This document shows positions 8,396 through 46,192 of a stretch of 52,349 nucleotides of DNA, piece after piece (position 1 is the first letter of the stretch; every line of letters starts with the position of its first letter). The translations under genes were made by a program, and so were the position numbers. The stretch is taken from the NCBI GenBank assembly GCA_021778805.1, contig JAJYBV010000009.1:1-52349 (forward strand), given 5' to 3'. This stretch comes from Chloroflexota bacterium. Its GTDB lineage: Bacteria > Chloroflexota > Ktedonobacteria > Ktedonobacterales > JACDGC01. The notes beneath the pieces are model-generated. The model was not told the DNA's origin. It searched no databases and saw nothing but the letters and a program-made list of their open reading frames with translations.

Positions 8396-8407
8396 CGCCG
8401 CCGATTC

Positions 8408-9841: not shown

Positions 9842-9959
9842 AGTATATAAAACGTTTCTGCGCCGGTTAATGTCTCAGCTAGACTCAATATAGTTAAAGT
9901 TTATACTAAGCAGCCCTTCATATGCAATTTATGTTGCTATTCCTTGCGCAAATTCATCT

Positions 9960-9988
9960 TTGCATGCCGATACGTTATCATATATAAT
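9960..9988 (+). promoter_or_regulatory. Sigma70-type promoter driving the pheS leader.
   Basis: TTGCAT (9960-9965), a 17-bp spacer, and TATAAT (9983-9988). Confidence 0.5.
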
Positions 9989-9994
9989 GATAAC

Positions 9995-10360
9995 AACAGT
10001 TATCGCAACGCGCGCGTATAACTTCAAAATAGAGCGCAATTATATGCGTTGAAAAGTTTTGCGTTCATGGGAAAAAAGTATCCGCATGGTTCCGCGCAGG
10101 GAGAGCCTGGCCAAAGACTGAAAGCCGGCTTGCGGCGCCCGCCGAGAAGTTCGTTCCCAAGCAGATTATTGAACATGCAGTGCAGTAGGTAATCCGGCGG
10201 CCGGCCGTTACCCGGCAAAACAAGTGGCGGAATATATATTGCGGGAGCCGCATGCGGTATTGAGTTTACCAGCCCCCAAATGTTTCGCAACCAGGGTGGT
10301 ACCACGAATAATGCTTGGTATAGCAGTCTCGTCCCTGTGGCGAGGCTGCTTTTTTATGTG
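9995..10360 (+). promoter_or_regulatory. T-box riboswitch leader (tRNA-Phe sensing) upstream of pheS.
   Basis: The T-box sequence c-c-a-G-G-G-T-G-G-T-A-C-C-A-C-G at 10291-10306 matches the aGGGUGGnACCgCG consensus. It is followed by an intrinsic terminator with stem gcagtctcg / cgaggctgc (10323-10349) and a TTTTTT tract (10350-10356). A UUC Phe codon in a GAGAAG-UUC-G context at about 10150 is a candidate specifier. Confidence 0.6.
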
Positions 10361-10496
10361 TTTTTTTAGGCAAAACACCAACCAAAATCTACATCAGAAA
10401 TTTGCGCATTCTTAAGCGAGATGTTTGTTATCTCAATATCACTAAAATGCGTCATTTCCAATGCAGCGGTTAGTACATACTATAAGGAGACTTCAC

Positions 10497-11522
10497 ATGC
10501 TTGATTTATTGCGCATACTGCAAGAAAGCGCGTTAAAAGCGCTGCTTTCTGCCGAAACAAGCGCCGAAATTGCGCAATGGCAAAATTTGTATTTAGGGCG
10601 GCAAGATGGCGAATTAACTAAAATTCTGCGCGGATTAAAAGATGTGCCGGCAGCAGACCGCAAAACCATCGGTCAACGCGCCAACGAAGTAAAAAATGAG
10701 CTGGAAGAGCAAGCCGAACTGCGCAAAAAAGCTATCGCAGAGCAAGAACTTGTAAGCGCTTTAGTTGCGGAACGACTAGATGTTACGTTGCCGGCCCGCA
10801 CGCTGAACAGCGGATATATGCACCCCATTTCACAAACAATTTACGAAATCTGCGGTATTTTCCAAAAACTTGGCTTTCATGTGATTGAAGGACCCGAAGT
10901 TGAAACTGATTATTATAACTTTCAGGCGTTAAATATTCCGCAAGACCACCCCGCAAGGGATATGCAGGATACTTTTTGGGTTGAGCCAGGCCAAATTTTA
11001 CTGCGAACTCAAACATCGCCCAACCAAATTCGAATTATGGAGCAAACTAAACCGCCGGTGCGCGCCGTTGTTCCGGGCAAAGTCTATCGCAACGAAGCGA
11101 CCGACGCTACCCACGAAGCCATGTTTCACCAAATAGAAGGCCTTGCAATAGATTCTTCAACCACTATGCGCGACTTGCGCGGCGCGTTGGAAGCTTTTGC
11201 CCGAGAGTTATTTGGCCCGCAAACAAAAACACGGTTTCGGCCGAGTTATTTTCCATTTACGGAACCCAGCGCAGAAGTTGATGTTACTTGCAATGTTTGT
11301 GGCGGCTCTGGCTGTAGAGTTTGCAAGTTTTCCGGCTGGGTTGAAATCGGCGGCAGCGGCATGGTGCACCCGCAAGTGCTGCGCAATGTGCAATACGATC
11401 CCGCGGTATATCGCGGATATGCGTTTGGCATTGGCGTAGAGCGCATTGCAATGATGCGCTATGGTATCAATGAAATTCGCCTGTTCTCTCAAAATGATCT
11501 GCGGTTTTTACGGCAATTTTAA
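10497..11522 (+). CDS. pheS: Phenylalanine-tRNA ligase alpha subunit.
   Basis: The class II aaRS core is present, including FPFTEPSAE and GWVEIGGSGMVHPQVL motifs and the conserved C-terminus ...RYGINEIRLF. An AAGGAG Shine-Dalgarno sequence lies 7 nt before the ATG at 10497. The track ORF begins earlier, at 10461. Confidence 0.9.
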   Translation: MLDLLRILQESALKALLSAETSAEIAQWQNLYLGRQDGELTKILRGLKDVPAADRKTIGQRANEVKNELEEQAELRKKAIAEQELVSALVAERLDVTLPARTLNSGYMHPISQTIYEICGIFQKLGFHVIEGPEVETDYYNFQALNIPQDHPARDMQDTFWVEPGQILLRTQTSPNQIRIMEQTKPPVRAVVPGKVYRNEATDATHEAMFHQIEGLAIDSSTTMRDLRGALEAFARELFGPQTKTRFRPSYFPFTEPSAEVDVTCNVCGGSGCRVCKFSGWVEIGGSGMVHPQVLRNVQYDPAVYRGYAFGIGVERIAMMRYGINEIRLFSQNDLRFLRQF

Positions 11523-21116: not shown

Positions 21117-22304
21117 TTGAGCGCCTTCTTATTGATGATGGGATTCATTTTATCCTTGCCGGCGCCTTCCTATGCTTCTACCACCAACACCGGCCCAAAT
21201 AGTGATAACCCTGCTGCTTCTCCCGCTTCCTCACCTGCTGCTTCACCTACCGTGCGGCTTCGTGAGCCGGTTAAGCAGAACCCAACTTGGGTTGCAGCAA
21301 AATACTCTTTTCGAGTGTTTAGCGGCATTAATCCGAATCTTCCAATTAAAGGTCAAAAAATCTCTCCATTCGTCTTGCCCATCAGTCCTTTAAAATGCCC
21401 TACGCCTGTTGCTAACAGCGCTGCACCCAATCCTTTGTGTGGCTCAACACCTCCAACTGCCTATACCTTAACTCAAGATACCTATAACAAAAATACTTGG
21501 GAACCCAGCGACGGCACAGAACCCAATTCTCCCGGAGGCAGCTCTGCGGATGATCTTGGTGACGCATATAATTCAAATATTCCTGGCGTTCCAAGCAATA
21601 AAGATTTTTATGACCTGTGCGGTCCCGGCGCTACAGATATTGCCTTGGATTTTTGGCCGGCTCCGCCTAATTTGCTGGAAAACGTTACGGATGATCCCGA
21701 TTATGATAAAGCTGTTAACTATACCAGAAGCATTAACTTGCAAACTTATTGGAACGGCACTCGCATGCGCGGCTATATGACTTATCTCGCTTGGCAAACA
21801 CAAGCGCCAACTTGGCCTACAGCTGGCATGATGGATACCAGCACATACCCTTCAAATGGCGTTACTGAGTATGATATTCAAGATGCGCTCAATTGGGAAG
21901 CTTCAGGCCATAATGTGAGCACATGGCAGAACTATTTTTACTTAATAACTTGGTGGAATAAATCCTCTGCAAGCGGATTAAATCAAGACGTTGTTACAGA
22001 TGTTGCAAATTCACATGTTCCCGTTGTTGCTGAAGTAAACGCCGCTATGCTGCCAAATTGGGTAGATCATGGACCAGGTCTTGTAAAGCATCAGATAGCG
22101 ATTATTGGCTACGATAACATAAAGGGAACCTACACCTATGTTGATACCTGCGCAAATTTTACAAAATGTAATGTCGAAACTAATCCAATTAACGAAAACA
22201 ATTGGCATACTGTTCCACAATCAACCATGTGGCAAGCCATAATCGCGGTACCTGTCAACACCAGCCCGCTGCCGCAATACGGTGATGGCGGCTGGGTGTG
22301 GTAA
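21117..22304 (+). CDS. Secreted papain-like cysteine peptidase (Peptidase_C39_2/BtrH-like fold) with an N-terminal Pro/Ser/Ala-rich linker.
   Basis: It has a hydrophobic N-terminus. The candidate catalytic Cys is in L-C-G-P-G-A-T-D-I-A, the His in H-Q-I-A-I-I-G-Y-D-N, and the Asp in Y-V-D-T. The start is a TTG at 21117, or an ATG at 21138. Confidence 0.4.
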   Translation: MSAFLLMMGFILSLPAPSYASTTNTGPNSDNPAASPASSPAASPTVRLREPVKQNPTWVAAKYSFRVFSGINPNLPIKGQKISPFVLPISPLKCPTPVANSAAPNPLCGSTPPTAYTLTQDTYNKNTWEPSDGTEPNSPGGSSADDLGDAYNSNIPGVPSNKDFYDLCGPGATDIALDFWPAPPNLLENVTDDPDYDKAVNYTRSINLQTYWNGTRMRGYMTYLAWQTQAPTWPTAGMMDTSTYPSNGVTEYDIQDALNWEASGHNVSTWQNYFYLITWWNKSSASGLNQDVVTDVANSHVPVVAEVNAAMLPNWVDHGPGLVKHQIAIIGYDNIKGTYTYVDTCANFTKCNVETNPINENNWHTVPQSTMWQAIIAVPVNTSPLPQYGDGGWVW

Positions 22305-22461: not shown

Positions 22462-23676
22462 ATGCAAAAACATATCATCTCTCGCTCATCCTTATCCCTT
22501 AAAAAAACACTTCTGCTATTTCTTTGCTTGGCTAGTATCAGTTTTTCCGCTTGCTCCAGCACGAGCATTGCCATACACAAAACCCCTGCGCCTACAGCAA
22601 CAGCAACACATGCGCCATCTGCTCCTTTCCTCGTTTCTTCGCAATGGCAGGTAGCGTATATTGATCAAACAGGAACGCTCCATGGTGTTACCCTGGATGG
22701 CAAACATGACCAAACTGGAAAACAAATTCAAGACCCCGAACTTACATCACAACAAAGCCCTGGGTTTCTGTGCAGTTCTATCAGCCCGGATGGGCATACC
22801 TTCAGCATGGATCTCAGTCAGTTTATGACCATTGATATTCGCGGAGTAACCCCTGATAGATTAGCGTCATTGCAATTTTTAGCATATGAATCGTTTTGGT
22901 CACCATTAGGAGACAAAGAAGCAGTTTTAGGCGGTGATTATGATTTCTATATCATCAATACTCGTGATGGAAACCCAGTCCGAATACCTTTTGATAATCT
23001 TACTCATCGTTTTAACATTGTAGGATGGATTGACGAAACACATCTTTTAATAGAAACTGAAACATTAGTACCAGGAAGCTCTGTAAACGTTTACTATACT
23101 GCTGAGTCGCTGAATATTGCCACAGGAAAAGCCACCATAATAGGTTCATTGTATCATGCTGAAATGCCGCAAGTGGCTGGTTTTATTTCTCCAGACGGCA
23201 AAACAGTTTTTATCTTTGATGTAGATGAGCAAGATAATCCCTTTCAACTTGTGCTGGCAACCATGAATCTGCAAACCGGGCAAATTACTCAATACCCGCA
23301 TATTGCCGCTGTTTTACAAAATAAAGATGTTATTACAAACGCGGTATGGAAACCCGGTTCCCAGGAATTAGTGCTGACCACCGGATTCCAAGAAAATAGT
23401 GATCTGCAAACCTGGATTGTGCATTTAGACACCGATTCCATCACTCCTTTGGTCGCAAATCAATTTGCCACCGCATGGAACGCCGAAACCAACACCATTC
23501 TTACCATTTCCGCCAATAATGGAATGGGTGATGGAGGAATTGCCGTTGATCGATCTGACCCTATTACCATATACGCCAATGCGCTGGATGCGCAGGAGCG
23601 CCCAACCAGTACCATATTAACCAAAAATGCTTATTTTACTTCAAACTTGGGGTTTATTCCGCCATCGCAACCGTAA
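22462..23676 (+). CDS. Lipoprotein with a TolB-like beta-propeller.
   Basis: The signal peptide carries an L-S-F-S-A-C lipobox. Repeated 'SPDG(H/K)T' blade motifs are present. Confidence 0.45.
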   Translation: MQKHIISRSSLSLKKTLLLFLCLASISFSACSSTSIAIHKTPAPTATATHAPSAPFLVSSQWQVAYIDQTGTLHGVTLDGKHDQTGKQIQDPELTSQQSPGFLCSSISPDGHTFSMDLSQFMTIDIRGVTPDRLASLQFLAYESFWSPLGDKEAVLGGDYDFYIINTRDGNPVRIPFDNLTHRFNIVGWIDETHLLIETETLVPGSSVNVYYTAESLNIATGKATIIGSLYHAEMPQVAGFISPDGKTVFIFDVDEQDNPFQLVLATMNLQTGQITQYPHIAAVLQNKDVITNAVWKPGSQELVLTTGFQENSDLQTWIVHLDTDSITPLVANQFATAWNAETNTILTISANNGMGDGGIAVDRSDPITIYANALDAQERPTSTILTKNAYFTSNLGFIPPSQP

Positions 23677-23867: not shown

Positions 23868-24104
23868 TTATTTGTAATTTTCTTGCAATTCTTGGAGCGC
23901 TGACTTATATTCAGTGACAGAAATTTCGCCATTTTGATAGCGCATTTGTAAAATCGCGGCGGGATTCCTATGTTGCCGCGTTGGGATAGAAACCCGGTTT
24001 TTCAGCCGGTTTATTGTTTGCACAAACAAAAATCCGATGAAACCTGTAAACAGCAGTATGCTGAAAAACAAAATCCAAAATAATGCGGAACTAAATTGTG
24101 TCAT
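23868..24104 (-). CDS. Small membrane-anchored SHOCT-domain protein, 78 aa.
   Basis: One N-terminal TM helix is followed by a C-terminal motif AILQMRYQNGEISVTEYKSALQELQ, typical of SHOCT (PF09851). Confidence 0.55.
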   Translation of the reverse strand: MTQFSSALFWILFFSILLFTGFIGFLFVQTINRLKNRVSIPTRQHRNPAAILQMRYQNGEISVTEYKSALQELQENYK

Positions 24105-24210: not shown

Positions 24211-24331
24211 GCTAGAGACCTGAGCCTAAAAATGGAATAAGAGGAATCGGGGGACACCCCCGGCCCCGTCAGGAGGCATACTGCCTCCTGCGCCTCCTGC
24301 TTTGTGCTTTACGTATGCTCAGGTCTCTAGC
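24211..24331. repeat. 121-bp MITE-like element with perfect 15-bp terminal inverted repeats.
   Basis: The left terminal repeat gctagagacctgagc (24211-24225) is the exact reverse complement of the right one, gctcaggtctctagc (24317-24331). The interior carries gggggacaccccc and a caggaggcatactgcctcctg hairpin. It is related to the copies at 11632 and 36357. Confidence 0.8.
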
Positions 24332-24391: not shown

Positions 24392-26137
24392 CTAAAAATT
24401 GCTTTGCCGGAACGTAGGCTTAATATTCGTTGCCGCAAAATCACCCTTAATTCGGCCGGTGTTCAGGTCGAACCCCATCTCGCGGAAAGTAAATAATTCA
24501 TGCGCTTCTATCGAAGAATCATCTGCGCCAACCACCTCAGTAATAGATATGATGCGGCGCGATCCATCTCGCAAACGCGCACACTGCACAATCACATCCA
24601 CACCGGAAGCAATTTGTCTGCGAATAGCGTTGGGTGTTGTTGAGCCAGCCGAAGCAGAGACTAAAGATTCCAGTCGATTCAGGGCGTCTTGAATAGAATG
24701 CGCTTGTAAAGTTGTCATCGAGCCGTTATGGCCGCAATGCAGCGCCTGAATAAATCCGAAAGCGTCTATTGGCCGCAGCTCACCCAAAATAATTCTTTGG
24801 GGGCTAAGCCGCAGAGTATTATAAATTAATTCACCGGTAGTAATATATGCGCCGGTAAAACCCGGCGGGCGTACCGAAGGAGCCTCGAAACGCGCCGCAT
24901 GCCGCTGCCGCAGCTGCAGTTCCGCCAATTCTTCAATGATCACGATTCGGTCGTTTTCATCGATACTATTGGCTAATGCATTTAACAAAGTGGTTTTTCC
25001 GGAACCGGGCGAACCGGAAATAATGATATTCACGTTATCCGCAACACATTCTTTTAAAAAATCTGCAATGTGCAAAGACATCATATCATTGCGCACCAGT
25101 TGTTCCAGCGCAAACATCCGCTTGATAGGCCTTCGGATGGTGAGGGTTGGCCCTGAAACCGCGTTGGGCGGAATAACAACATTGATGCGCGATCCGTCGG
25201 ATAATTGCCCGTCAAAAATTGGATTTTGCCGTGAAAGGGTTCCACCGGACGGATTAATTAGTTTATACAGCACGTGCATGAGATGAGATTCATCCAAAAA
25301 ATGAACCGGCACTTCATATAAACTGCCTCCTTGCTCTACATACGTCATATGAGGGCCAATAACCATTATTTCACTAACCGAATCATCGCGCAGCAACGGC
25401 TCCAATGGACCGGCTCCAAGCACTTCATCAACAACCAAACTGATGATTTTTTCATTTTCAGCCACTTTAGCAAAAGAATCTTGAGTTAACTCATTTGGCG
25501 CAATTTGCAGAGCCAGATTTCTAATAATTTCAATTGTTTCCGGAGTGCGTTCAACGGGTATATCCAAATTTTGGCTGTGATACAGTTCTTCAATTTGCAT
25601 CGCAATATTCACAGCTTTGGCTATCTGGGCATCTTCAGGGAATTGCAGATGCGGATGGTGTGATGCATTCATTACTGCTGCAGGTGGTGGCTGTGAATTT
25701 TCAAATGCATTTTGCGCGCTATCAATATCTATTTCATTTTGAAAAAATGTTACCGCTTCTTGGTATCCGGGCGCTCCATTAGGTGGAGGCGGTTCAAAAA
25801 CTAAAAAATCACTATTGCCGGCGCCGGTATCATTTGTTGGGTTTTCCTCCCAATATCCCTGTTCTTTAGGATTTCTGCCTGGCCATGTATCGATCGGCTC
25901 GGAATGAAACGACTGCTCTTTGTGAAACGATTGATCTTTAGAAATATTTTCTATCGCGTCGGGAACAACATCTCCAAAATTTTGCTTGCTAACCCAATCT
26001 TCGGTATGAAATGAAACATCTTGAGGTGGATATGATAAATGCAAGGTTGGGCTAAGCGAATAACTGGGTATTTCTTCGGAAATTGACGTTCCCTGATCTT
26101 GCATATTTGCGTTATGTTGTGTCGGATGGCGATGCAT
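24392..26137 (-). CDS. CpaF/TadA-type secretion ATPase of the VirB11/GspE superfamily, with a roughly 200-aa disordered N-terminal extension.
   Basis: Walker A is I-S-G-S-P-G-S-G-K-T-T-L-L-N-A-L. The Asp box and Walker B read RIILGELR. The His box is C-G-H-N-G-S-M-T-T-L-Q-A-H-S. A CpaF N-domain is present (VSEIMVIGPHMTYVEQ). The first roughly 200 aa are Q/P/E/N-rich and low-complexity. Confidence 0.8.
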   Translation of the reverse strand: MHRHPTQHNANMQDQGTSISEEIPSYSLSPTLHLSYPPQDVSFHTEDWVSKQNFGDVVPDAIENISKDQSFHKEQSFHSEPIDTWPGRNPKEQGYWEENPTNDTGAGNSDFLVFEPPPPNGAPGYQEAVTFFQNEIDIDSAQNAFENSQPPPAAVMNASHHPHLQFPEDAQIAKAVNIAMQIEELYHSQNLDIPVERTPETIEIIRNLALQIAPNELTQDSFAKVAENEKIISLVVDEVLGAGPLEPLLRDDSVSEIMVIGPHMTYVEQGGSLYEVPVHFLDESHLMHVLYKLINPSGGTLSRQNPIFDGQLSDGSRINVVIPPNAVSGPTLTIRRPIKRMFALEQLVRNDMMSLHIADFLKECVADNVNIIISGSPGSGKTTLLNALANSIDENDRIVIIEELAELQLRQRHAARFEAPSVRPPGFTGAYITTGELIYNTLRLSPQRIILGELRPIDAFGFIQALHCGHNGSMTTLQAHSIQDALNRLESLVSASAGSTTPNAIRRQIASGVDVIVQCARLRDGSRRIISITEVVGADDSSIEAHELFTFREMGFDLNTGRIKGDFAATNIKPTFRQSNF

Positions 26138-26337
26138 ATCGCAGCCCCTTCTTTGTGCGTTTCCTTACGTAGTATTGTGCGCAGGTAAATCCTTCATCCT
26201 GCTGAAAACACAATCACTCTCTGTTTCCATGATACACATGCTGAAAAATTTCCGATAAAAAAGGTCTTTTGGTATATTTATTTGCCGCAAAAAGAATCTG
26301 CGTTTCGCAAGCAGATCCGGCTGCCTATCTTTCGCTT

Positions 26338-27666
26338 TTAAAACAATTCCGTTTTCAATAGTTCAACCTGATCTTCAGAAAGCACATCAAACATCACCAA
26401 AAGCGCCGCCAAATCATAATCTTTGCCGGCGGCAGATAATTCTTGTTTTATCCTGCCTAAAGACGCAATTTCATCGGCGGTCACCAAATCGCGGCTAACC
26501 AGCAGCGCCGCCAATAATTGATCCGGCGTTAAAAACTTAAATAACATGGCTAAATCAGTTACAGAAAATTCCATGCCAACGCTTTGCAGCGTCTGCTGAA
26601 TTGCGCGGAGCGCATCTAGTTTTTGCGGCGCCACAACCGCGCTATCCATTAAAAATGAGCTGAGCGCGCGATCATTTATATGGTCGCGCGGGCGCAGATC
26701 TTCGCTGCTAATAACCGGTATAGGTGTTGTTTGACTTTCCATACGGGGATCATCCGGAGCGATAGCGGCGCCGTTATATCCTCGGTATGCGAATCCCGGT
26801 TTAGGTTTTGGAGCCGGCGGTTCCCAAGCGTCATCAATGGAAATCTGTTTTGCCGGTTGGGAACGCTGCGGCGCTTTAGGTTTGGGTTTTGGCGCAAACG
26901 CTTCGGCAAACAAATCTTGTGATTGCGAAGAACGCGCTGATGGCGGCGGTGGTTCTTTTGGTGTACTTCGCCTTTCGGAAAATGGCGGCGGCGGCATTGA
27001 TGAAACAATTGGTGGCGGCCCACCGGATTTTGGATTCCGCTTAAAAGGATTTTCACTCAGCGGCTGCGCAAACGGCGAGGAATCACCGGAACTTTCAGAA
27101 AATAAATCTTCGGTGCTTGCGGGAATATTGAGTGGCGCCCAATTTTGAACAGACGGCGCCTCAAATGGGGGCAGCGATTGGCGCTGTTTTGGCAAAGGCA
27201 GCGATAAATTCGCCGGCGGGCCGTCGGTCCACATCGGTATAGGTGTAGCGTCGGGAAGTTTAGAGCGAATTAAGGCAATAAGTGTTTCAAATTCATTTGG
27301 CCCGGTTATCTCTATATCTGCGCGCGCCATTCGCAAGCCATCTTCTAAATTAGAGGTAATGCGTGTAGGATCATAGCGAAACGTAACAATCTGGAAATCG
27401 CGCGCATGGCGATGCGAATCCATACCAACCCAAAATTCGCGTCTGTTAGCGGCCGCGTTTGCCAGGTCTACAACAACCAAATCAACAGGATCATTTTGCA
27501 GCGTATGAAAAACTTCAACGGGTATTCTTGCGGCGCGCACATCATACCCCTCGGTGCGCAGCCGCGCCAAAATCGCCGCCGCGGTGGTGTCGTTGCGTTC
27601 AAATAACAGCACCATCGGCCCGGTTGCATTTATTTTTAGAGAAGACGGAGAAAGATTTTGGCGCAT
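26338..27666 (-). CDS. Regulator with an N-terminal atypical receiver (REC-like) domain, a central Pro-rich linker and C-terminal GspE_N/MshEN-like repeats.
   Basis: The REC-like region has an acceptor Asp in V-V-V-D-L and a Thr in Q-I-V-T-F. The acidic pair is replaced by E-R-N-D, and the conserved Lys is not evident. The C-terminus, LTPDQLLAALLVSRDLVTADEIASLGRIKQ ... DLAALLVMFDVLSEDQVELL, resembles type II secretion protein E N-domain repeats. Confidence 0.5.
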   Translation of the reverse strand: MRQNLSPSSLKINATGPMVLLFERNDTTAAAILARLRTEGYDVRAARIPVEVFHTLQNDPVDLVVVDLANAAANRREFWVGMDSHRHARDFQIVTFRYDPTRITSNLEDGLRMARADIEITGPNEFETLIALIRSKLPDATPIPMWTDGPPANLSLPLPKQRQSLPPFEAPSVQNWAPLNIPASTEDLFSESSGDSSPFAQPLSENPFKRNPKSGGPPPIVSSMPPPPFSERRSTPKEPPPPSARSSQSQDLFAEAFAPKPKPKAPQRSQPAKQISIDDAWEPPAPKPKPGFAYRGYNGAAIAPDDPRMESQTTPIPVISSEDLRPRDHINDRALSSFLMDSAVVAPQKLDALRAIQQTLQSVGMEFSVTDLAMLFKFLTPDQLLAALLVSRDLVTADEIASLGRIKQELSAAGKDYDLAALLVMFDVLSEDQVELLKTELF

Positions 27667-27805
27667 AGTTTAATATCTCTATATTTCAACATCTCGGCTA
27701 AACATACGCCACCACAGGCAAAAAGCGTAAGGCTAACCGGCTGGTATCAGGTAAAGTATACCATATATCTGTTAATCGGAAAATAGTGTTATGAAACTAG
27801 GATAT

Positions 27806-28468
27806 CTATGATCTTTTCGGTATTGGAACCAGTTGAACCAGCGTTCGCGCCATCGTCATAATTTCTGTTTGATATAATGCGCTCAACCGCCCATCCGAAT
27901 ACCCAAAATCATTCACACCAGCCAAAAAATAATCCGCCGGCAACGCTCCAATTGCAGGGAGGTTTAACGTTCGTGTTTGCTGTGGCAGCATATTGCGATC
28001 TGCCGGATCAATTTTGGAAAAGACCACACCGATGCGTCTACGCTGAATGAGAGTTTCAAATTTTTGCGCATAATGTTCTACATGACGTTCATCTTGCTCG
28101 GTTGGTCCGGAAAAAACAAGCAGATAATCAATATCGACCCGCGAGCGCTCTAACTGCTGCCGTTCTAAAAATGTATGATCTACATCTAATAATATGCAGG
28201 TTGCCCGGCCTTCCACCTCAATGCGCGCGCTAGCAATCATTTGGCTAAAATTACGCGCCTGATTTGGGCGCGGTGTCCACAGCACCATGCCGCGCATGCC
28301 AAAAGAATCTTTTAACCGATATAATGTTGTATTGTTCTTAATAATGTCCGTTAGTAATACAGGCGCCCGCTGATCTGTGAGTGATTTCCCCAAAAAGAAT
28401 GCAGCGGTGCTCACTCCCTGACCACGGTTTAACTGCGTTAAAGCAATGACTTTTACTGATGATGCCAT
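27806..28468 (-). CDS. MinD/ParA/CpaE-like protein with a degenerate P-loop, a probable pseudo-ATPase.
   Basis: In the deviant Walker A position, V-I-A-L-T-Q-L-N-R-G-Q-G-V-S-T-A-A-F-F-L-G replaces the KGGxGKT motif and has no Lys. An A'-like motif V-L-L-T-D-I and a Walker-B-like motif C-I-L-L-D-V-D-H are present. Confidence 0.45.
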   Translation of the reverse strand: MASSVKVIALTQLNRGQGVSTAAFFLGKSLTDQRAPVLLTDIIKNNTTLYRLKDSFGMRGMVLWTPRPNQARNFSQMIASARIEVEGRATCILLDVDHTFLERQQLERSRVDIDYLLVFSGPTEQDERHVEHYAQKFETLIQRRRIGVVFSKIDPADRNMLPQQTRTLNLPAIGALPADYFLAGVNDFGYSDGRLSALYQTEIMTMARTLVQLVPIPKRS

Positions 28469-28495
28469 AAGCTTTGAAAACCTTATTTACATGAC

Positions 28496-29875
28496 TCAAC
28501 TTGCGCTGGATTTATTCATCCTATTATTGTACTCCTTCTCGTAATTATCTGCAAGTTGCAGCAAATTCATTTCCGCTTCAGCGGCGTTAAAAGGTAAAAG
28601 CGGATTCATAATCGAGTCGTTGGCGGCAGTATTAAACGCCATCGCTATCTCACGAATTACATTTGGGTTGGTAACACGGCGCATACGAACTGCGTTATAA
28701 GCTTCAGCCAGCGCCTCGGGTGAAAGCAGCGCTGCAGACTTCATTGCGCCGGGCAGCGGAAAAACGGAGTGCGCTGAGCCTGGGCGCAGCGGATGCAGAA
28801 CATCTGCGCTCATATCTGCGAACATATCGCCGGCAACGGTTTCTTGGCGGACCGGCCGCGCCGATGCTACAATCTGCCGGCGACTTTCCGTAAATGCCGT
28901 CAGCCGGGTTTGCGTAACCACAATACCCCATCTGCCAACTTCATATTGCAATTTGCTGCGCATATACATGGAAATCGATTCAGTTGCGGCTGAGCCAAAC
29001 GGCTCAGTTTCATCATCACATAATTCTGCCGAGTTATAATCATTTATCAAGTCGCGGCAAATTCGTTCTGCGGTTGTTTGGATATATTCTTTCCATGGTT
29101 CGTTTAGTTTTAACAAATTATTAGCCTGCTGTGGCGCAATATGATACAGCGCATGCAGCGAAAAATCTATCTGCTTTGTGTCTCGTGTGACAACTTCGCG
29201 CATCGTAATATCCAGCACCATATCGTGGGTTGGCACAATAGCCCAAATATGTTCACCCGGTGTCCGAATATGCAGGCCGGGTTCCAGTGTTCGGTAATAT
29301 TTACCGAATAAAACCGTAACATGCGCGGAATTTTCCATTACCGGATAGATCATAAGCCGAATAACGATAATGATCAGCGCGCTGCTTCCAATAGAAAACA
29401 AAAAGGTTGGCCAAAACCCAAATATTACCCAACCGGAAACCGCCAAATAGCACATTGCGCCAGTTAAAGCGGCTATCGACCATATAGCGTCGTTTGGCGC
29501 ATAATACAGGGCGGCGCTTAACACAACACCAATAGCAATAAACACTAGCGCTGTTGGCCCCAATATACCAATATTCATGCGGCCGTTTAATATTTGTCCG
29601 CCTTTTATCGCCAGCAAGATTAAAAGCAGAAACAGCGAACCACCAAGCAGTGTGGGAATGAATAATGGAGAATTCTTTTTGAACACTTTTAAAGAAAACA
29701 GTGATTCTTGTTCTTGATCGGCGCTGTACCGCGGATATGGATGTTCGCGTAAAGCTATGGCAGAACGTTTCTTTAAGTATTTAGCAACATCAAGCTGTCT
29801 TTGCTGTGAGATTCCATCCTTCCTCATGATCCGAACTCCATCCCTTATTCCGCTATGATATATGTGTATGCGCAT
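28496..29875 (-). CDS. Membrane protein with 4 TM helices followed by an SPFH/band-7 (stomatin, flotillin, HflK-like) domain.
   Basis: Four hydrophobic helices between aa 70 and 185 are followed by V-T-V-L-F-G-K-Y-Y-R-T-L-E-P-G-L-H-I-R-T-P ... D-M-V-L-D-I-T-M-R-E-V-V-T-R-D-T-K-Q-I-D-F-S-L-H-A-L-Y-H-I, the SPFH signature. Confidence 0.55.
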   Translation of the reverse strand: MRIHIYHSGIRDGVRIMRKDGISQQRQLDVAKYLKKRSAIALREHPYPRYSADQEQESLFSLKVFKKNSPLFIPTLLGGSLFLLLILLAIKGGQILNGRMNIGILGPTALVFIAIGVVLSAALYYAPNDAIWSIAALTGAMCYLAVSGWVIFGFWPTFLFSIGSSALIIIVIRLMIYPVMENSAHVTVLFGKYYRTLEPGLHIRTPGEHIWAIVPTHDMVLDITMREVVTRDTKQIDFSLHALYHIAPQQANNLLKLNEPWKEYIQTTAERICRDLINDYNSAELCDDETEPFGSAATESISMYMRSKLQYEVGRWGIVVTQTRLTAFTESRRQIVASARPVRQETVAGDMFADMSADVLHPLRPGSAHSVFPLPGAMKSAALLSPEALAEAYNAVRMRRVTNPNVIREIAMAFNTAANDSIMNPLLPFNAAEAEMNLLQLADNYEKEYNNRMNKSSAS

Positions 29876-29934: not shown

Positions 29935-30400
29935 TACCTACTCAGAGGGTATCATGCTTTTGCCTGGCCACATATGCCAAGGATTTGTAAGGGGCGGTAG
30001 CCCCTTACGCGAGGTTTGGGGTGTCCCCAAATACATTTTTTATATAAAAAGGAAACACCGCACGGTACACACAGGGATTCATAAGGGGCGGTAGCCCCTT
30101 ACGCAGGGATTGGGGTGTCCCCAAAATCTCTTTTTTTATATAAAAAGGAAACACCGCACGGTACACACAGGGATTTGTAAGGGGCGGATGCCCCTTGCGC
30201 GGGGTTTGGGGTGTCCCCAAAATTATTAATAAAAACCATATTCGCAAAGCAATATTGGCAGCGCTTGTGCTTCGGAGCGGTGTAGGTGGCCATCGGCCAC
30301 CAACGCCGCACTGGAGCGCAAACGCCGTACCGTATTTTTTATGTTATTTGGATACTCCTCCCTCTTTGCGGATTTTGTCAATATCTCTTGAGTAGTTACG
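29935..30400. repeat. MITE-like element with imperfect terminal inverted repeats (GTA(C/A)CTACTCAGAG) containing a tandem array of three palindromic units of about 95 bp.
   Basis: The left end is tacctactcagagggtatcatg. The right end is tctcttgagtagttacg. Units start at about 29981, 30075 and 30171, and each contains ggggcggtagcccc and ggggtgtcccc hairpins. Confidence 0.7.
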
Positions 30401-37252: not shown

Positions 37253-38779
37253 TTACCGTTCGCGCACACCAAACAAATCAATAATCACTTCACGCAGTCT
37301 ATCCGGCGCGCCGGTGCGCAAAATATACACTGCTTTTCCACTTTCTTGCGCCGATACAATCCGATCCGGCTGTTTGCGATATATACTTTTCAGCGCCAAA
37401 ATCGTATCTGCTTCGTGTTCATCATAGCCAATCACCGCGGGTACATGCAGATCTTGAATGACTTCTTCCAATCGCGAACGGCTGATGCCCAGCGGATAAA
37501 TTACCTGACGGCGCTGGCCGGGTTCTGCGGCGGTTTCTGAGGTTTTTTGTATATGTACCTGCGGTTCCGAACGATTCTCAGAGCGCACGGTAACTTGGCG
37601 GCGATTAACCGGGTAAGAGTTGTGCGTATTGGGTGTTCGCATTTCGTTCCGGGGATGTTGCGAAATATTTTTCCCCAACGGCCCGCGCAGCTCTTCCAGC
37701 GTCGCCGGGCGCGCCGATTCATGAGACACAGCAATATGCCCGTCTCCGCGCATTTCGCGGATGCTGCGCGCAGGCATTTCGCCGCGCAGCATTGCATCTA
37801 TCGCCTCGGCCACATTATCATGAATTAATACCCGCCATCGGTCTTGCTGTTCTACTACTACATCAAACGTGGGGGGAGCTTTGCGTTCCAGCACGGTTTT
37901 TTGTGTGCCGCGGCGGCGCGCCTCTTCATCACCTAATGTAACCGAACTGATTCCGCCAATTAAATCTGACAACGTTGGGTTCAGCAATAAATTATCAAGT
38001 GTGTTGCCGTGCGCAGTTCCAATCAGTTGCACACCGCGTTCCGCAATAGTTCTGGCAGCTTTTGCTTCCAATTCCGTGCCAATTTCATCGATGATAATGA
38101 CCTCCGGCATATGATTTTCCACCGCCTCAATCATCACCGCATGCTGTTCCGCCGGATGCGCTACTTGAAGCCGGCGCGCCCGCCCTATTCCGGGATGAGG
38201 CACATCTCCGTCTCCGGCAATTTCATTCGATGTATCAACAATCACCACACGTTTCCCTAAATCATCGGCTAAAACACGGGCAATTTCACGCAATATTGTT
38301 GTTTTGCCAACTCCCGGACGACCCAAAATTAACAAGCTGCTGCCTTGTTCCACAACGTCGCGCACTAATTCCACGGAGCCAAAAACAGCGCGGCCTACCC
38401 GGCAAGTTAAGCCAATAACTTTGCCCTGACGGTTGCGAATGGCAGATATGCGGTGCAAAGTTCGTTCTATACCGGCGCGGTTATCGTCTCCAAATTCGCC
38501 AACACGCTGAATGACATATTGGATATCATTTTCAGTAACCGGGTCTGCTGTGATAGACGCCGTTTCATGCAAGAAACGCGCTTCCGGCAGCCTGCCTAGA
38601 TCCATTACGATCTCCAGCAAATCGGCATATGATTCACGCGCGCGCAAAGCTCGCTGAATGGCAGATGGCAACGTGGCAAAAAGGAGATCTAAATTATCCG
38701 TAATGCGATTTTCAAAATGAGCAGTCATGGTATAGGCCGGCCTTTCTTGAAACATCTTAATGGCGTCGAACTTGTTCAC
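37253..38779 (-). CDS. SpoIIIAA-like / ycf45-family AAA ATPase with a C-terminal nucleic-acid-binding-like region.
   Basis: Walker A is L-I-L-G-R-P-G-V-G-K-T-T-I-L-R-E-I-A-R. Walker B is V-I-I-I-D-E-I-G. T-A-H-G resembles the sensor motif. The pattern fits stage III sporulation protein AA / ycf45. Confidence 0.65.
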   Translation of the reverse strand: MNKFDAIKMFQERPAYTMTAHFENRITDNLDLLFATLPSAIQRALRARESYADLLEIVMDLGRLPEARFLHETASITADPVTENDIQYVIQRVGEFGDDNRAGIERTLHRISAIRNRQGKVIGLTCRVGRAVFGSVELVRDVVEQGSSLLILGRPGVGKTTILREIARVLADDLGKRVVIVDTSNEIAGDGDVPHPGIGRARRLQVAHPAEQHAVMIEAVENHMPEVIIIDEIGTELEAKAARTIAERGVQLIGTAHGNTLDNLLLNPTLSDLIGGISSVTLGDEEARRRGTQKTVLERKAPPTFDVVVEQQDRWRVLIHDNVAEAIDAMLRGEMPARSIREMRGDGHIAVSHESARPATLEELRGPLGKNISQHPRNEMRTPNTHNSYPVNRRQVTVRSENRSEPQVHIQKTSETAAEPGQRRQVIYPLGISRSRLEEVIQDLHVPAVIGYDEHEADTILALKSIYRKQPDRIVSAQESGKAVYILRTGAPDRLREVIIDLFGVRER

Positions 38780-40559: not shown

Positions 40560-41215
40560 CTTTAATTATTAAAAAGGGATATGATATACCTGCATAACCA
40601 AGGATACGTAAAGGGCGGTAGCCCCTTGCGCGGGGTTTGGGGTGTCCCCAAAGTATCTTTGTAAAAACAACCACCGCACGGTACACATGGGGATACGTAA
40701 GGGGCGGTAGCCCCTTGCGCGGGGTTTGGGGTGTCCCCAAAATATCTTTGTATAAACATCCATCGCACGGTACACATGGGGATACGTAAGGGGCGGATGT
40801 CCCTTACGCGGGGTTTGGGGTGTCCCCAAAATATCTTTGTATAAACATCCACCGCACGGTACACATGGGGATACGTAAAGGGCGGTAGCCCTTTGCGCGG
40901 GGTTTGGGGTGTCCCCAAAATATCTTTTTTTAAACATCCACTGCACGGTACACATGGGGATACGTAAGGGGCGGATGCCCCTTACGCGGGGATAGGGGTG
41001 TCCCCAAAATATCTTTTTTTATTTTTCCGATGGGAAATATTGGTGGCAATACGGCCACAAAACGAACACCACACGATGAATCGTGTGGCTTGTTTCCCCA
41101 CCTCCACCCGTGTGTAGCCGTGCAGTGATTATATTAAAACAAGCGCGATGGGGCACTCAATGTACTCTGCTCTGTTGATCTTCATCCTAATGAAAATATC
41201 AAAGACCATATGCCT
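40560..41215. repeat. Composite repeat, left copy. It comprises a terminal segment, five 89-bp tandem GGGGTGTCCCC palindromic units, and a roughly 185-bp 'aaaacgaacaccacacgatgaatcgtgtgg' module.
   Basis: Units start at 40602, 40691, 40780, 40869 and 40958. The 41035-41212 segment is almost identical to the reverse complement of 45541-45730. Confidence 0.85.
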
Positions 41216-42284: not shown

Positions 42285-43127
42285 ATGAAACGGAACCGTA
42301 ACGCAATTGCTTGGTTTGAGGATAGGCTGCAAGGTTTAGTAGAAGGCTCTTTTGGCAGAATATTCCGCTCAAAACTGCAGCCGGTTGAAATATCGCATAA
42401 ATTAGTACAGGTAATGGAAGAAAATATTGTAGCGCAAGATTCTCGAAAATTAGCGCCAACTAAATATAACATTTACCTGAATCCACGAGATTACACAGAT
42501 TTAGAGCCAAGTTTGCCGGAAGTTACCACTCGTTTGCAAGATTATCTTATTTTAACGGCGAAACAGCGTGGCTATACGTTAATTATTCGTCCAATTTTGC
42601 ATTTCATTCCAGATAACAAAATATCTTTGGGGCAAACACAGGTTGAGGCTGTTTTTGAGAATATCGGTTCGTCGCAAAATATTCCTGCAAATCTCCAAAA
42701 CCCTATTCCGCAGCCAAATGTACCGCCAATTGAGACTGTAAACCCTAACGCAACTGCTATGATTTCACCTGAACAATCTGAACAATATGCTTCCGAGGTT
42801 GAAACAACGCTTACCCCTGCTCGGGATAACGCCATACCACACGCTGCGCTTTCCGAACGCGCCAGCCAAGGGTTCGGTAATACCTATCGTTTGCAAAGTG
42901 AAGTTACTCACATCGGCAGGCATTCAACTAATGATATAGTTATTAATAACCCGCGTGTTTCACGTTATCATGCGGAAATTCGCTATGAACAAGGCAAATT
43001 TATTATCTATGATATCAGCAGCACCAACGGGGTGCGCGTAAATAACCGGCGCGAAAAGCAGGCTGTTTTAAAAAATGGCGATGTTTTAGCGTTTGGCCCT
43101 GTTAGCTTTGTTTTTGAACGGAGGTAG
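42285..43127 (+). CDS. fhaA: FhaA-like protein with an N-terminal DUF3662 and a C-terminal FHA domain.
   Basis: The FHA core reads T-H-I-G-R-H-S-T-N-D-I-V-I-N-N-P-R-V-S-R-Y-H-A-E-I ... S-T-N-G-V-R-V-N. The gene sits immediately upstream of fhaB and rodA. Confidence 0.7.
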   Translation: MKRNRNAIAWFEDRLQGLVEGSFGRIFRSKLQPVEISHKLVQVMEENIVAQDSRKLAPTKYNIYLNPRDYTDLEPSLPEVTTRLQDYLILTAKQRGYTLIIRPILHFIPDNKISLGQTQVEAVFENIGSSQNIPANLQNPIPQPNVPPIETVNPNATAMISPEQSEQYASEVETTLTPARDNAIPHAALSERASQGFGNTYRLQSEVTHIGRHSTNDIVINNPRVSRYHAEIRYEQGKFIIYDISSTNGVRVNNRREKQAVLKNGDVLAFGPVSFVFERR

Positions 43128-43135
43128 CGCAGCAT

Positions 43136-43588
43136 ATGACAAATGCACTTACATTCGATCAGTTTCTGCTTATCTTACGCATTGCAATGATTGCAGTTTT
43201 GTATCTTTTTATACTTCAAGTTGTGCTGGTTTCCCGGCGTGATTTAAATATGGCGGTGCAATATCAATCTGCGCAGCCGGCCAAACAAGTAATTGGCCAC
43301 CTAACGGTTATGGATAGCGGAACCACAAAACTGAACCCCGGCAGAAGATTTGATATTTTTACAGATATGACATTGGGTCGGGGACCAACTAATACCGTTA
43401 TTTTAGAAAGCACCGTAGTTTCCGGTGAAAATACCCGTATCTATTACGAAAATAAATCGTTATGGATCGAAGATTTAGGCAGCAAAAACGGCACATTTGT
43501 AAACGAACAGCGGTTAACCAGCCCGCGCGCACTAAAATTAAACGATGTTATTCGAGTTGGCGATGTGCGTTTCAAGATAACTGCGTAA
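43136..43588 (+). CDS. fhaB: FhaB/FipA-like membrane-anchored FHA-domain protein.
   Basis: It has an N-terminal TM helix. The FHA core reads L-G-R-G-P-T-N-T-V-I-L ... S-G-E-N-T-R-I-Y ... S-K-N-G-T-F-V-N. Confidence 0.7.
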   Translation: MTNALTFDQFLLILRIAMIAVLYLFILQVVLVSRRDLNMAVQYQSAQPAKQVIGHLTVMDSGTTKLNPGRRFDIFTDMTLGRGPTNTVILESTVVSGENTRIYYENKSLWIEDLGSKNGTFVNEQRLTSPRALKLNDVIRVGDVRFKITA

Positions 43589-43679
43589 CATCTATGTCTT
43601 AATATATGCATGTACATTGATGGCTTAGTTCGCAAATATCTTTTCTTAAACTTTCCGCCAACATTCGACGGAAATTGCT

Positions 43680-45095
43680 GTGTGTTTATTTATCCTATTA
43701 GGAAGGCAGCAAAACATTATGAAACAAATATTGTCACGTATTGTGGATCTGCGTAATTACCGATGGAATGAATTGTTTTTGCTGATATTGCCAAGCGTGT
43801 TTATTCTGCTCGGCATGCTAAATCTGCAATATGTCAGTGTCAGCAACCAAGGAAAAGCTCCATCAGAAATTACGGCCAGCTCTTTACCGGGCATTGATAC
43901 ATTAGGTCCACAACTTCTGCTGATTGTGGCGCTGTTTGCTACCCATATTATTTTATCTTGGCTGATCCCGAAAGCAGATCAAACATTGCTGCCAATTACC
44001 GGTATGCTCAGTGCGCTGGGCGTTCTTATGGCTACCCGGCTTGGACCAGCGCTGCCATATCCCATACCGGTTCTGGGGTATCGCCAATTAATTTGGGTTA
44101 TCCTTGGACTCGTTTTTTGTATCGGCACAGTTTGGTTTACCCGATCGATAAAATGGCTGAGCCGTTATAAATATACATGGGCGGCCGCAGGTATTATCCT
44201 TGTGCTTGTTTCGCTTTTTCACTCTTTACGTGTTAAAAACTTCAACTCCCCCACGCATGATCAATTGAATTTGGGGTTTGGCGGGGTCGTATTTCAACCA
44301 TCTGAGCTGCTAAAATTATGCTTGGTTATATTTTTTGCAGCATATTTAAGCGAAAATCGTGAAGTATTGGCGCTTGGCGGTAAAAAAATAGGGCCGATAC
44401 ATATTCCACCACTTCGGCAATCTGCGCCATTGCTGGCAATATTATTTATTTCATTGCTGTTGTTTTTAGGCTTGCGCGAATTAGGTGTTGCGCTGCTGAT
44501 TTTCGGCATTTTTGTTTCGATGATTTACATTGCCACAAACAAAATGTCCTATGTGCTGTATTCACTAGGCTTTTTCGCCGGTGGCTCCCTTATTGCCTAT
44601 TATTTGCTTGGATACATACGCGATCGCGTTGCGCTTGTGGCAAACGCATTTTTGCCGGCATACGCCAACAATACCGGCTTTCAGATTGTGCAGGGATTAA
44701 TTGCCTTAGGAGCCGGCGGTATTTTTGGGCAAGGATTAGGACAAGGATATCCCTATTTTGTTCCCGCTGTGCAAACAGACTATGTAGCTGCGGCTGTAGG
44801 CGAGGAATTTGGCATGATGGGGCTATTTGCGCTCCTTGCCATTATGCTGCTGTTAATATATCGCGGATTTCGCATAGCTATGCGTTCACGCAGTGTATTT
44901 GAACAATTGCTTGGCGCTGGATTAAGCAGTATTTTTGCCATCCAAACCATTGTTATTTTGGCGGGCAACCTAAAATTAATACCGCTTACCGGCATACCAC
45001 TTCCGTTTATTACTTATGGCGGAAGTTCGGTTATTATTAATTTTATTATGGTTGGTCTGTTATTGCGTTTATCTGCGCCGGAAGAAACCGCATAA
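43680..45095 (+). CDS. rodA: SEDS-family peptidoglycan glycosyltransferase (RodA/FtsW).
   Basis: SEDS hallmarks include QPSELLKL, ALGAGGIFGQGLGQG, AVGEEFGMMG and PLPFITYGGSS. The gene sits directly after fhaA and fhaB, as in Actinobacteria and Chloroflexi. The likely start is the ATG at 43719 (MKQILSRIV). Confidence 0.8.
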   Translation: MCLFILLGRQQNIMKQILSRIVDLRNYRWNELFLLILPSVFILLGMLNLQYVSVSNQGKAPSEITASSLPGIDTLGPQLLLIVALFATHIILSWLIPKADQTLLPITGMLSALGVLMATRLGPALPYPIPVLGYRQLIWVILGLVFCIGTVWFTRSIKWLSRYKYTWAAAGIILVLVSLFHSLRVKNFNSPTHDQLNLGFGGVVFQPSELLKLCLVIFFAAYLSENREVLALGGKKIGPIHIPPLRQSAPLLAILFISLLLFLGLRELGVALLIFGIFVSMIYIATNKMSYVLYSLGFFAGGSLIAYYLLGYIRDRVALVANAFLPAYANNTGFQIVQGLIALGAGGIFGQGLGQGYPYFVPAVQTDYVAAAVGEEFGMMGLFALLAIMLLLIYRGFRIAMRSRSVFEQLLGAGLSSIFAIQTIVILAGNLKLIPLTGIPLPFITYGGSSVIINFIMVGLLLRLSAPEETA

Positions 45096-45545: not shown

Positions 45546-46192
45546 TGGTCTTTGATATTTTCATCAGGATGAAGATCAACAGAGCAGAGTACATTGAGTG
45601 CCCCATCGCGCCTGTTTTAATATAATCACTGCACGGTACACATGGGTGGAGGTGGGGAAACAAGCCACACGATTCATCGTGTGGTGTTCGTTTTGGGGCC
45701 ACCTTGCCATCCAATATTTCCCATCGGAAAAATAAAAAAAGATATTTTGGGGACACCCCTATCCCCGCGTAAGGGGCATCCGCCCCTTACGTATCCCCAT
45801 GTGTACCGTGCGATGGATGTTTATACAAAGATATTTTGGGGACACCCCTATCCCCGCGCAAGGGGCTACCGCCCCTTACGTATCCCCATGGGTACCGTGC
45901 AGTGGATGTTTTTACAAAGATACTTTGGGGACACCCCAAACCCCGCGCAAAGGGCTACCGCCCTTTACGTATCCCCATGGGTACCGTGCGGTGGTTGTTT
46001 ATAAAAGATATTTTTGGGGACACCCCTATCCCCGCGCAAGGGGCTACCGCCCCTTACGTATCCCCATGGGTACCGTGCGGTGGATGTTTATAAAAAGATA
46101 TTTTGGGGACACCCCTATCCCCGCGTAAGAGGCATCCGCCCCTTACGTATCCCTGGTTACGCTGGTATATCTTATCCCTCTTTAATTGTTAA
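45541..46192. repeat. Composite repeat, right copy, an inverted duplicate of 40560-41215.
   Basis: Five 89-bp units start at 45749, 45838, 45927, 46016 and 46105. The terminal segment is cgtatccctggttacgctggtatatcttatccctctttaa. The inner roughly 185 bp are about 97 % identical to the reverse complement of 41035-41212. Confidence 0.85.

Follow-up and report, generated by a model that had tools for sequence, protein, structure and literature searches.

An SPFH membrane protein, a MinD-fold protein without the Walker A lysine, a pseudo-receiver and an orphan CpaF-like ATPase side by side in a Ktedonobacterial genome

Results

Four adjacent genes are under purifying selection

We examined a contig of 52,349 nucleotides, hereafter the window, from an uncultured Chloroflexota bacterium of the class Ktedonobacteria (GenBank assembly GCA_021778805.1, contig JAJYBV010000009.1). 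Within it, four genes at 24392-29875 stand head to tail on the minus strand (Table 1). They encode a membrane protein of the SPFH/Band_7 type, a 220-amino acid (aa) protein with a MinD/ParA fold, a 442-aa protein with a receiver fold, and a 581-aa ATPase of the CpaF clade. A preliminary description of this DNA had presented the four as a single operon that looked like a re-purposed module derived from the Tad pilus machinery. We confirmed the four co-directional open reading frames (ORFs) on which that description was built. Proteins identical to those of the locus are present on contigs of two further metagenome-assembled genome (MAG) assemblies, GCA_027399335.1 and GCA_027399295.1.

Table 1. 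Positions of the four genes, their long spacers, the terminator and the nearest repeat elements in the window.
Feature	Position	Strand	Size or remark
SPFH gene, mechanical ORF	28496-29875	minus	459 aa
SPFH/Band_7 membrane protein, probable true start M17	28496..29827	minus	443 aa, as annotated
MinD/ParA-fold protein	27806..28468	minus	220 aa
Spacer 5' of the 442-aa gene	27667..27805	minus	139 nt
Pseudo-receiver protein	26338..27666	minus	442 aa
Spacer between the 442-aa gene and the ATPase gene	26138..26337	minus	200 nt
Orphan CpaF-clade ATPase	24392..26137	minus	581 aa
Strong intrinsic terminator 3' of the ATPase stop codon	24343..24369	minus	11-bp stem + T-run
Tandem array	29981-30223		96 bp x2.6; one of three arrays of the GGGGTGTCCCC-core repeat
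Element with perfect 15-bp terminal inverted repeats	24211-24331		121 bp; MITE-like; one copy in window

All four ORFs are also intact in a congener (locus L011), whose proteins are ~90% identical and which served as the reference for our substitution-rate and spacer comparisons. At a synonymous divergence (dS) of 0.65-0.76, the ratio of nonsynonymous to synonymous divergence (dN/dS) was 0.084 for the SPFH gene, 0.057 for the 220-aa gene, 0.056 for the 442-aa gene and 0.063 for the ATPase gene. The disordered regions are constrained too, with ratios of 0.065 and 0.14, the latter for the ATPase. Judged from these rates (dN/dS 0.06-0.08), the four genes are under strong purifying selection and therefore functional.

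This pattern bears directly on whether the locus could be the decaying remnant of a Tad locus or an antiphage defence island; the preliminary description had also entertained a defence-type system. Some degeneracy is indeed visible, in the P-loop of the MinD-fold protein and in the His box of the ATPase, and repeat elements lie on both sides of the genes, as might be expected of a decaying locus or a defence island. Such an origin is nevertheless hard to reconcile with ratios this low at dS ~0.7, with ORFs intact in both genomes, and with families that persist at 30-50% identity across the class. The repeats are missing from L011, where the same genes are present, and the surroundings are those of a housekeeping region of uniform GC content (Phe-tRNA synthetase, NADH dehydrogenase subunits, FtsW/RodA, glycosyltransferases and CrtC). 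Searches with PADLOC gave only local P-loop matches of 25-40 residues for the ATPase and none for the other three proteins; we regard this output as P-loop noise and reject a defence system. A remnant or a defence island is, in our judgement, highly improbable.

Long spacers are conserved and only one strong terminator is present

The 27 nt between the SPFH and 220-aa genes are the sole short spacer of the locus. The 139-nt spacer is 83% identical to its counterpart in L011, compared with ~54% calculated for neutral sites at dS ~0.7, and contains an extended -10-like element, TGgTATACT, that we predict to be part of a promoter. Within the 200-nt spacer, the ATPase-proximal ~150 nt (26138-26287) are 85-88% identical to L011 and include an identical stretch of >45 nt. 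The distal part has only 28% identity, with indels, and a weak terminator-like hairpin lies just 3' of the 442-aa gene (26310-26298). Conservation of both long spacers greatly exceeds that of synonymous sites, which suggests the presence of internal regulatory elements. The ~150-nt region 5' of the ATPase gene may be a genus-specific leader or promoter. We also considered a structured RNA or riboswitch there and rejected it, as the region had no Rfam match at E<=1 and is not kept in three ATPase orthologue loci (L026-L028).

The sole strong intrinsic terminator follows the ATPase gene, and an equivalent is found in L011 (14201-14225). In this genus, the genes could therefore be co-transcribed by read-through. 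This terminator would mark where the transcription unit ends; the unit boundaries drawn here are predicted ones, and a single operon of four genes is one possibility.

The SPFH protein has four hydrophobic segments and a conserved C-terminal domain

In the 459-aa ORF, Pfam Band_7 covers residues 185-332 (E 3e-15, 57 bits against a cutoff of 23.6) and is preceded by four hydrophobic segments within residues 68-181, as judged by hydropathy. A Band_7 match above the Pfam gathering score, together with an N-terminal membrane anchor, identifies this protein as a member of the SPFH group, in agreement with its initial description as a four-transmembrane (TM) SPFH/band-7 protein. It had also been considered that the protein might instead be a membrane platform of the TadB/C type; its domain is Band_7 and not T2SSF. 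An alignment with the homologues in L011, L010 and L030 supports M17 as the start codon and reveals a C-terminal domain conserved across the family (PLPxAM...PEALAEAYxAVRxRR...LPF). The homologues in L010 and L030 are 32-35% identical to the window protein, retain Band_7, and were reached via the neighbourhood of the 220-aa gene. A word-indexed homology search with the SPFH protein returned its own cluster and that of the congener only.

The MinD/ParA-fold protein has lost both signature lysines

The 220-aa protein consists of a single domain with a MinD/ParA fold. Its best structural matches are members of that family (MinD, FlhG/FleN, BcsQ and ParF), and TadZ does not appear to be its nearest structural neighbour. 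Profile alignment with hhalign gave E 0.07 to a CpaE-like domain, compared with 8e-4 to E. coli MinD. The P-loop reads Q12..R15-G-x-G18-V-S20-T and has no lysine. The same is true of the whole family, in which the P-loop aligns as x-R-G-x-G-[VAQ]-S-T, the Walker A lysine position is occupied by V, A or Q in every member, and both lysines of the deviant Walker A motif KGGxxGK[ST] are missing from all of the 14 members aligned. The preliminary description had seen the loss of the P-loop lysine in the window protein. Invariant in the family are Q12 and R15, which are specific to it, the Walker B-like D95 and D97, and D114. No obvious amphipathic helix for membrane targeting was apparent at the C-terminus of the 220-aa protein.

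The 442-aa protein joins a pseudo-receiver to a disordered linker and a helical domain

An AF2 model of the 442-aa protein shows five strands and five helices at residues 18-136, with a predicted local distance difference test (pLDDT) score of ~86-90 and the CheY-like (beta-alpha)5 fold. Foldseek, run with the whole-protein model, matched this domain to the receivers of PmrA, Spo0F, DivK and FrzS (E 2e-4 to 7e-3, TMt ~0.7), and receiver matches filled its output. The Pfam Response_reg model (PF00072) reached 13.8 bits, below its cutoff of 30.2. In a 37-sequence alignment D67 and T95 are invariant, E23-R24 stands where the acidic pair would be, and strand 5 is not followed by a conserved Lys. 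The phosphorylation pocket is thus incomplete, and the term atypical receiver, used from the outset for this protein, is apt.

Residues ~140-328 form a low-confidence, Pro/Ser-rich disordered stretch that varies greatly in length across the family. It nonetheless carries near-invariant motifs, namely SPFAQPYSxNPF (often duplicated), DAWxPP and AYRGY..LAPDDPR, which suggests that these motifs are peptide-docking sites for partners. The C-terminal domain (residues 329-441) is predicted by AF2 to contain seven helices and has a dN/dS of 0.025 relative to L011.

This C-terminal domain had been labelled as repeats resembling the N-domain of the type II secretion ATPase (GspE_N). We could not reproduce that identity. 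The corresponding Pfam model, PF05157 (MshEN), matched none of 10 C-domain family members at E<=10, and two profile searches of PDB sequences returned nothing relevant. Of two E. coli proteins considered as templates, HofB contains only model positions 24-86 of PF05157, and GspE has N1E in its place. A lone DUF4388 match in one family member (E 0.012) was treated as noise.

The ATPase belongs to an orphan clade of CpaF-like proteins

Pfam T2SSE (PF00437) matches the ATPase with E 5e-35, and its top homologues, which are named CpaF in their source records, are 41-46% identical over ~60% of the protein. We therefore assign it to the CpaF family, as was first proposed. It falls outside the equivalog models of NCBIfam: its best match, TIGR03819, scored 222.6 bits against a cutoff of 373.15, and the VirB11, TrbB and FlaI models likewise stayed below their own cutoffs. 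The protein begins with ~170 compositionally biased residues, followed by a three-helix-bundle/N-terminal domain (NTD) region and then the RecA-like core; its N-terminal extension measures roughly 170-240 aa. The preliminary description had noted a disordered extension of ~200 aa. Six short motifs are kept in the extension across the clade (NPTxxLP, D.W, PDV.E, TEDLWA.S, QG.W and SDFLV.EP). In the comparison with L011, the core has a dN/dS of 0.034 and the intrinsically disordered region one of 0.14.

The roles of the CpaF catalytic residues have been assigned by cryo–electron microscopy of Caulobacter crescentus CpaF (PMC12019362, PMC11300603). We scored ten positions, D215-R217-R223-K287-E308-E312-R347-E357-H374-H382, in the window protein and its 120 best hits. 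Outside the clade, the canonical D-R-R-K-E-E-R-E-H-H was retained by 106 of the 108 CpaF hits, whereas one of the two others differs at a single site and the other is off-pattern (E308Q). Within the orphan clade all 13 clusters deviate, with H382 lost in every one, H374 in 10, R347 in 7 and R223 in 5. The window ATPase itself reads D-Q-R-K-E-E-R-E-H-Q. Its catalytic set is therefore incomplete (R217Q and H382Q), with Walker A (K287/T288), the Asp box (E308/E312) and Walker B (E357) intact. By these sequence measures, the proteins form a small, coherent orphan clade of CpaF-like ATPases under purifying selection.

No TadB/TadC, CpaE, Flp pilin or prepilin peptidase gene accompanies the ATPase in the 52 kb window, or within ~10 kb of its orthologues in L026-L028 and L050. 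In the window, the ~40 ORFs of at least 150 aa that we scanned included no T2SSF, Peptidase_A24 or TadE protein, and no TadB/C, prepilin peptidase or recognizable pilin was found among the ORFs scanned, which agrees with the absence of pilins, platform and peptidase noted in the preliminary description. Conceivably, the ATPase continues to power a Tad pilus, with TadB/C, Flp pilin and prepilin peptidase encoded elsewhere in the genome and with neighbours that are unrelated to it. Its membership of the CpaF family, with ~45% identity over the core, its intact Walker A, Asp box and Walker B, and the fact that N-terminal disorder is a known CpaF architecture class (PMC12019362) would all fit this explanation, and the absence of Tad parts is established only for the 52 kb window. 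Against it, H382 is lost in 13 of 13 clusters and the arginine fingers are often lost, residues that the other CpaFs examined retain. Five orthologous loci, the window included, have no T2SSF gene nearby, and the clade has N-terminal motifs of its own that are missing from canonical CpaFs. We consider a pilus motor acting in trans to be quite improbable.

A second type of CpaF homologue, P0160 (in L046, region 8001-11196), was taken as a would-be canonical Ktedonobacterial Tad contrast. Its catalytic signature is canonical, its extension measures 192 aa, and it, too, lacks T2SSF neighbours. Three small proteins matching the Ribosomal_L12 C-terminal domain are encoded 3' of it on the opposite strand.

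Only the SPFH and MinD-fold genes recur as a unit

Gene-neighbourhood comparison, which the preliminary description had suggested, does not support a conserved four-gene system. Using a six-sequence alignment of the 220-aa protein to retrieve related loci, we collected 15 genome and 16 metagenome loci with a homologue of this protein and searched each of them with all four proteins. The four genes occur together in the window species and its congener (L011) only, and are not adjacent in phylogenetically distinct genomes. The SPFH and 220-aa genes were found as a pair, with the SPFH gene immediately upstream and without the other members of the set, in two further lineages, L010/L031 and L030. 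The 220-aa proteins of these loci, at 39-42% identity, are among the closest relatives outside the genus. Another close relative, in L029, has no SPFH gene upstream. More distant 220-aa homologues (L012-L025) are solitary and mostly flanked by genes on the opposite strand.

The other two genes are similarly dispersed. Orthologues of the 442-aa protein in L008 and L009 (~48% identity), and more distant ones in L005 and L006, are not accompanied by any ATPase, SPFH or MinD-fold gene. Orthologues of the ATPase with the long extension (L026, L027, L028 and L050) have no T2SSF, CbiA/MinD or Band_7 neighbours. The SPFH and MinD-fold genes are thus the only recurring unit, because they are found without the rest in L010/L031 and L030 and the others are dispersed. 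All four families were found only in Ktedonobacteria, and the 442-aa and 220-aa homologues come from MAGs of the order Ktedonobacterales.

Two other gene associations were seen among these loci. A divergently oriented gene resembling glycoside hydrolase family 3 lies upstream of, and near, the 220-aa homologue in L010, where it matches PF00933, and in L013, L017, L022 and L025; this recurrence could reflect residual synteny or hint at cell-wall turnover. In two MAGs (L005 and L006) the 442-aa orthologue is directly downstream of an Amidohydro_1 gene, with CTP_transf_like further upstream, an arrangement that may be the commoner one for this gene.

The neighbourhoods also bear on the possibility of a single Tad-derived cytoplasmic module made by all four genes, in which a CpaF-like hexamer and a split CpaE-like ring would be anchored by an SPFH cage, the pilins and TadB/C having been lost. 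In the Tad machine, CpaF is encircled by CpaE/TadZ, which combines an atypical receiver with a deviant MinD domain (PMC13170226). A MinD fold, a receiver fold and a CpaF protein are exactly the domain set of CpaE plus CpaF (PMC13170226). The genes are adjacent and co-directional, with one strong terminator after the last of them in both genomes; all four families are restricted to Ktedonobacteria and all four genes are under purifying selection; the lysine-less P-loop is like that of the CpaE-like domain; and the conserved acidic and aromatic linear motifs of the ATPase and the 442-aa protein could bind each other. A single module is difficult to square with a cluster known from one genus only, with ATPase orthologues in four lineages that have none of the partners nearby, with 442-aa orthologues that are likewise alone, and with 220-aa homologues of which most have neither an SPFH gene nor the ATPase nearby. 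In addition, the 220-aa family aligns less well to the CpaE-like domain than to E. coli MinD, and the gene order (MinD-fold, then receiver) is opposite to the domain order of CpaE. We therefore regard a single module as unlikely. Of the preliminary idea of a re-purposed Tad derivative, the orphan ATPase and the odd MinD-fold and receiver proteins stand, but the four-gene set does not extend beyond one genus.

The flanking repeats are not part of the locus

The four genes had been described as bracketed by repeat elements. Both elements exist, but neither is a property of the locus. The dispersed intergenic repeat with the palindromic core GGGGTGTCCCC has 17 matches over the window, at 7456, 16545, 18753, 20727, 29981-30223, 40637-41008 and 45746-46117. 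Three of these sites are arrays, the 96-bp array of Table 1 and two five-copy arrays with 89-bp spacing on opposite strands. None was found in 15.5 kb of L011, and the repeat appears to be a recent species-specific expansion. The 121-bp element resembles a miniature inverted-repeat transposable element (MITE). It is an insertion relative to L011, separates the terminator of the ATPase gene from the conserved promoter region in front of the gene that follows, and was found in same-species contigs only. We rejected the idea that the repeats are mobile-element borders of the cluster, since they are dispersed in the window and missing from L011. Dispersed and species-specific, they are therefore not part of the locus and, from the comparison with L011, are recent species-specific insertions.

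The gene that follows the ATPase is a 78-aa ORF (window 23868-24104, minus strand) that is also gene-called in MAG annotations. Its product has a single TM segment, ends in a SHOCT-like tail and had no match in a Pfam search; the gene has its own conserved TATAAT-containing upstream region. We considered whether it might be a Flp pilin and rejected this, as it is a TM plus SHOCT-like protein with its own conserved promoter. Two plus-strand genes (21117-22304 and 22462-23676), which are kept in same-species contigs, run convergently towards the ATPase end of the locus. They encode proteins of ~400 aa without a Pfam or PADLOC match, the second of which has a lipoprotein-like signal sequence. Elsewhere in the window are an Actinobacteria-like gene run of FhaA, an FHA protein and FtsW-RodA (42285-45095) and a SpoIIIAA-like AAA protein fused to a phosphotyrosine-phosphatase-like domain (37253-38779).

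Discussion

We find that the locus is probably, although with little more than even confidence, a genus-specific juxtaposition of three Ktedonobacteria-restricted units and not one dedicated four-component machine. The first unit is the conserved bicistron of a four-TM SPFH scaffold and its MinD/ParA-fold partner without the Walker A lysine. Like other SPFH proteins, the scaffold would form oligomers in the membrane, and the pseudo-MinD would act as a cytoplasmic adaptor or positioning subunit docked on the SPFH C-terminal domain. The second unit is the single-copy 442-aa protein, composed of pseudo-receiver, disordered linker and helical domain, which in most other Ktedonobacteria is encoded elsewhere. 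It may serve as an adaptor that works independently of phosphorylation and brings in partners through its conserved linear motifs. The third is the orphan CpaF-derived ATPase, which keeps its nucleotide-binding core and has lost the gamma-phosphate-contacting H382 clade-wide and the arginine fingers variably. It would still be a nucleotide-binding hexamer, working as a slow or regulated switch or a scaffold and not as a motor for pilus extension or retraction, and its conserved N-terminal motifs would bind partners. The analysis shows the domain identities, the action of selection, which active-site residues are replaced and how the gene neighbourhoods are made up, whereas the oligomeric states, partner contacts and reduced hydrolysis are what we infer.

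Several points weigh against this reading. The MinD-fold protein, the pseudo-receiver and the ATPase recall the cytoplasmic part of a Tad machine (CpaE/TadZ plus CpaF), and to find these three of the four side by side is a suspicious coincidence. The 220-aa P-loop is like that of P0210, a CpaE-like domain fused to CpaF. There is no strong terminator between the four genes, and co-transcription in this genus is possible. Reduced activity of the ATPase is deduced from its substitutions alone. Genes that work together may be dispersed in a genome, and missing synteny does not refute a functional link. Last, a 442-aa homologue lies 8-10 kb from the 220-aa homologue in L012 and L014; we rejected this proximity as linkage, since genes for an ABC transporter, a peptidyl-prolyl isomerase (PPIase) and a sigma factor lie in between. 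Overall, the observations of the preliminary description were largely correct, except for the GspE_N label and the significance given to the repeats, and its reading as one re-purposed Tad-derived operon is only partly supported.

A bolder scenario can be drawn, which we think rather improbable. Of an ancestral Tad system, Ktedonobacteria might retain nothing but the cytoplasmic ring, rewired onto an SPFH cage via the conserved motifs of disordered regions, with the window preserving an ancestral linkage that has been broken up in other lineages. In this ring, a CpaF-derived hexamer, its active site remodelled and slow, would be joined by the CpaE-derived MinD-fold and receiver-fold proteins. 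If true, this would be a new pilus-free, membrane-associated ATPase machine, acting, for example, in membrane or envelope remodelling during mycelial growth.

PilT/VirB11-like ATPases are usually understood via the filament or secretion machine that they power. The pattern of the orphan clade, with no platform, pilin or CpaE gene nearby in the loci examined, a lost H382, often lost arginine fingers and a gained motif-bearing disordered arm, suggests that a hexameric motor has been re-used as a switch or scaffold. If true, such re-use would widen the functional range of this superfamily. There is also a lesson for annotation, as the locus should not carry a Tad system label.

Comparison with known systems

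The ATPase resembles the CpaF/TadA motors of Tad systems in its T2SSE domain, in its ~45% identity over the three-helix bundle, NTD and RecA-like core, and in the conserved Walker A, Asp box and Walker B. It differs from them in that no TadB/C, CpaE, pilin or peptidase gene stands beside it in five lineages. Unlike these motors, the clade has no H382 and often no H374, R347 or R223, and the window protein has Q in place of R217. Furthermore, its ~170-aa extension carries clade-specific conserved motifs, which canonical CpaFs lack.

The 442-aa protein shares with FrzS-type pseudo-receiver adaptors a receiver fold, an incomplete phosphorylation pocket and an extension that does not bind DNA. Its extension is a Pro/Ser-rich disordered region and a seven-helix domain, however, and not a coiled coil. 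We know of no link between this protein and type IVa pili. By eye, the 'short helix, turn, helix' repeats of its C-terminal domain (LxxLLxxFxxLxPDQLxxAL) recall the helical cyclic di-GMP-binding motifs of MshEN, but the domain is predicted to be all-helical and the RLGxx...Q motif was not reproduced.

Likeness to CpaE/TadZ lies in the combination of a MinD/ParA fold with non-canonical Walker A and an atypical receiver fold, encoded directly upstream of a CpaF-like gene. The P-loop of the 220-aa protein (G-x-G-V-S-T) is also similar to that of P0210 (G-S-G-V-T-T). In CpaE/TadZ, the receiver is N-terminal to the MinD-like domain in one protein encoded beside cpaF in a tad locus, whereas here the two folds are on separate proteins in reversed order. 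The 220-aa protein also lacks the signature lysine of KGG, the receiver protein has an additional disordered region and helical domain, and most 220-aa homologues have no CpaF nearby. Compared with MinD/ParA adaptors of lost or altered catalysis, the 220-aa protein has the fold and the Walker B-like aspartates in common with them. Its family is set apart by the absent Walker A lysine, the invariant Q12 and R15, and the pairing of its closest relatives with an SPFH gene.

The SPFH protein, finally, is like other bacterial members of its group (HflK/C, flotillins and the stomatin-like QmcA/YqiK) in having Band_7 after an N-terminal membrane anchor. It differs from these in possessing four hydrophobic segments, where they have a single anchor or a hairpin, and in having a family-specific C-terminal domain in the position usually taken by a long coiled coil. 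Its conserved partner is a pseudo-MinD and not NfeD or FtsH. The pairing of an SPFH protein with a lysine-less MinD-fold protein is a candidate for a new type of SPFH partnership, besides those with NfeD and FtsH.

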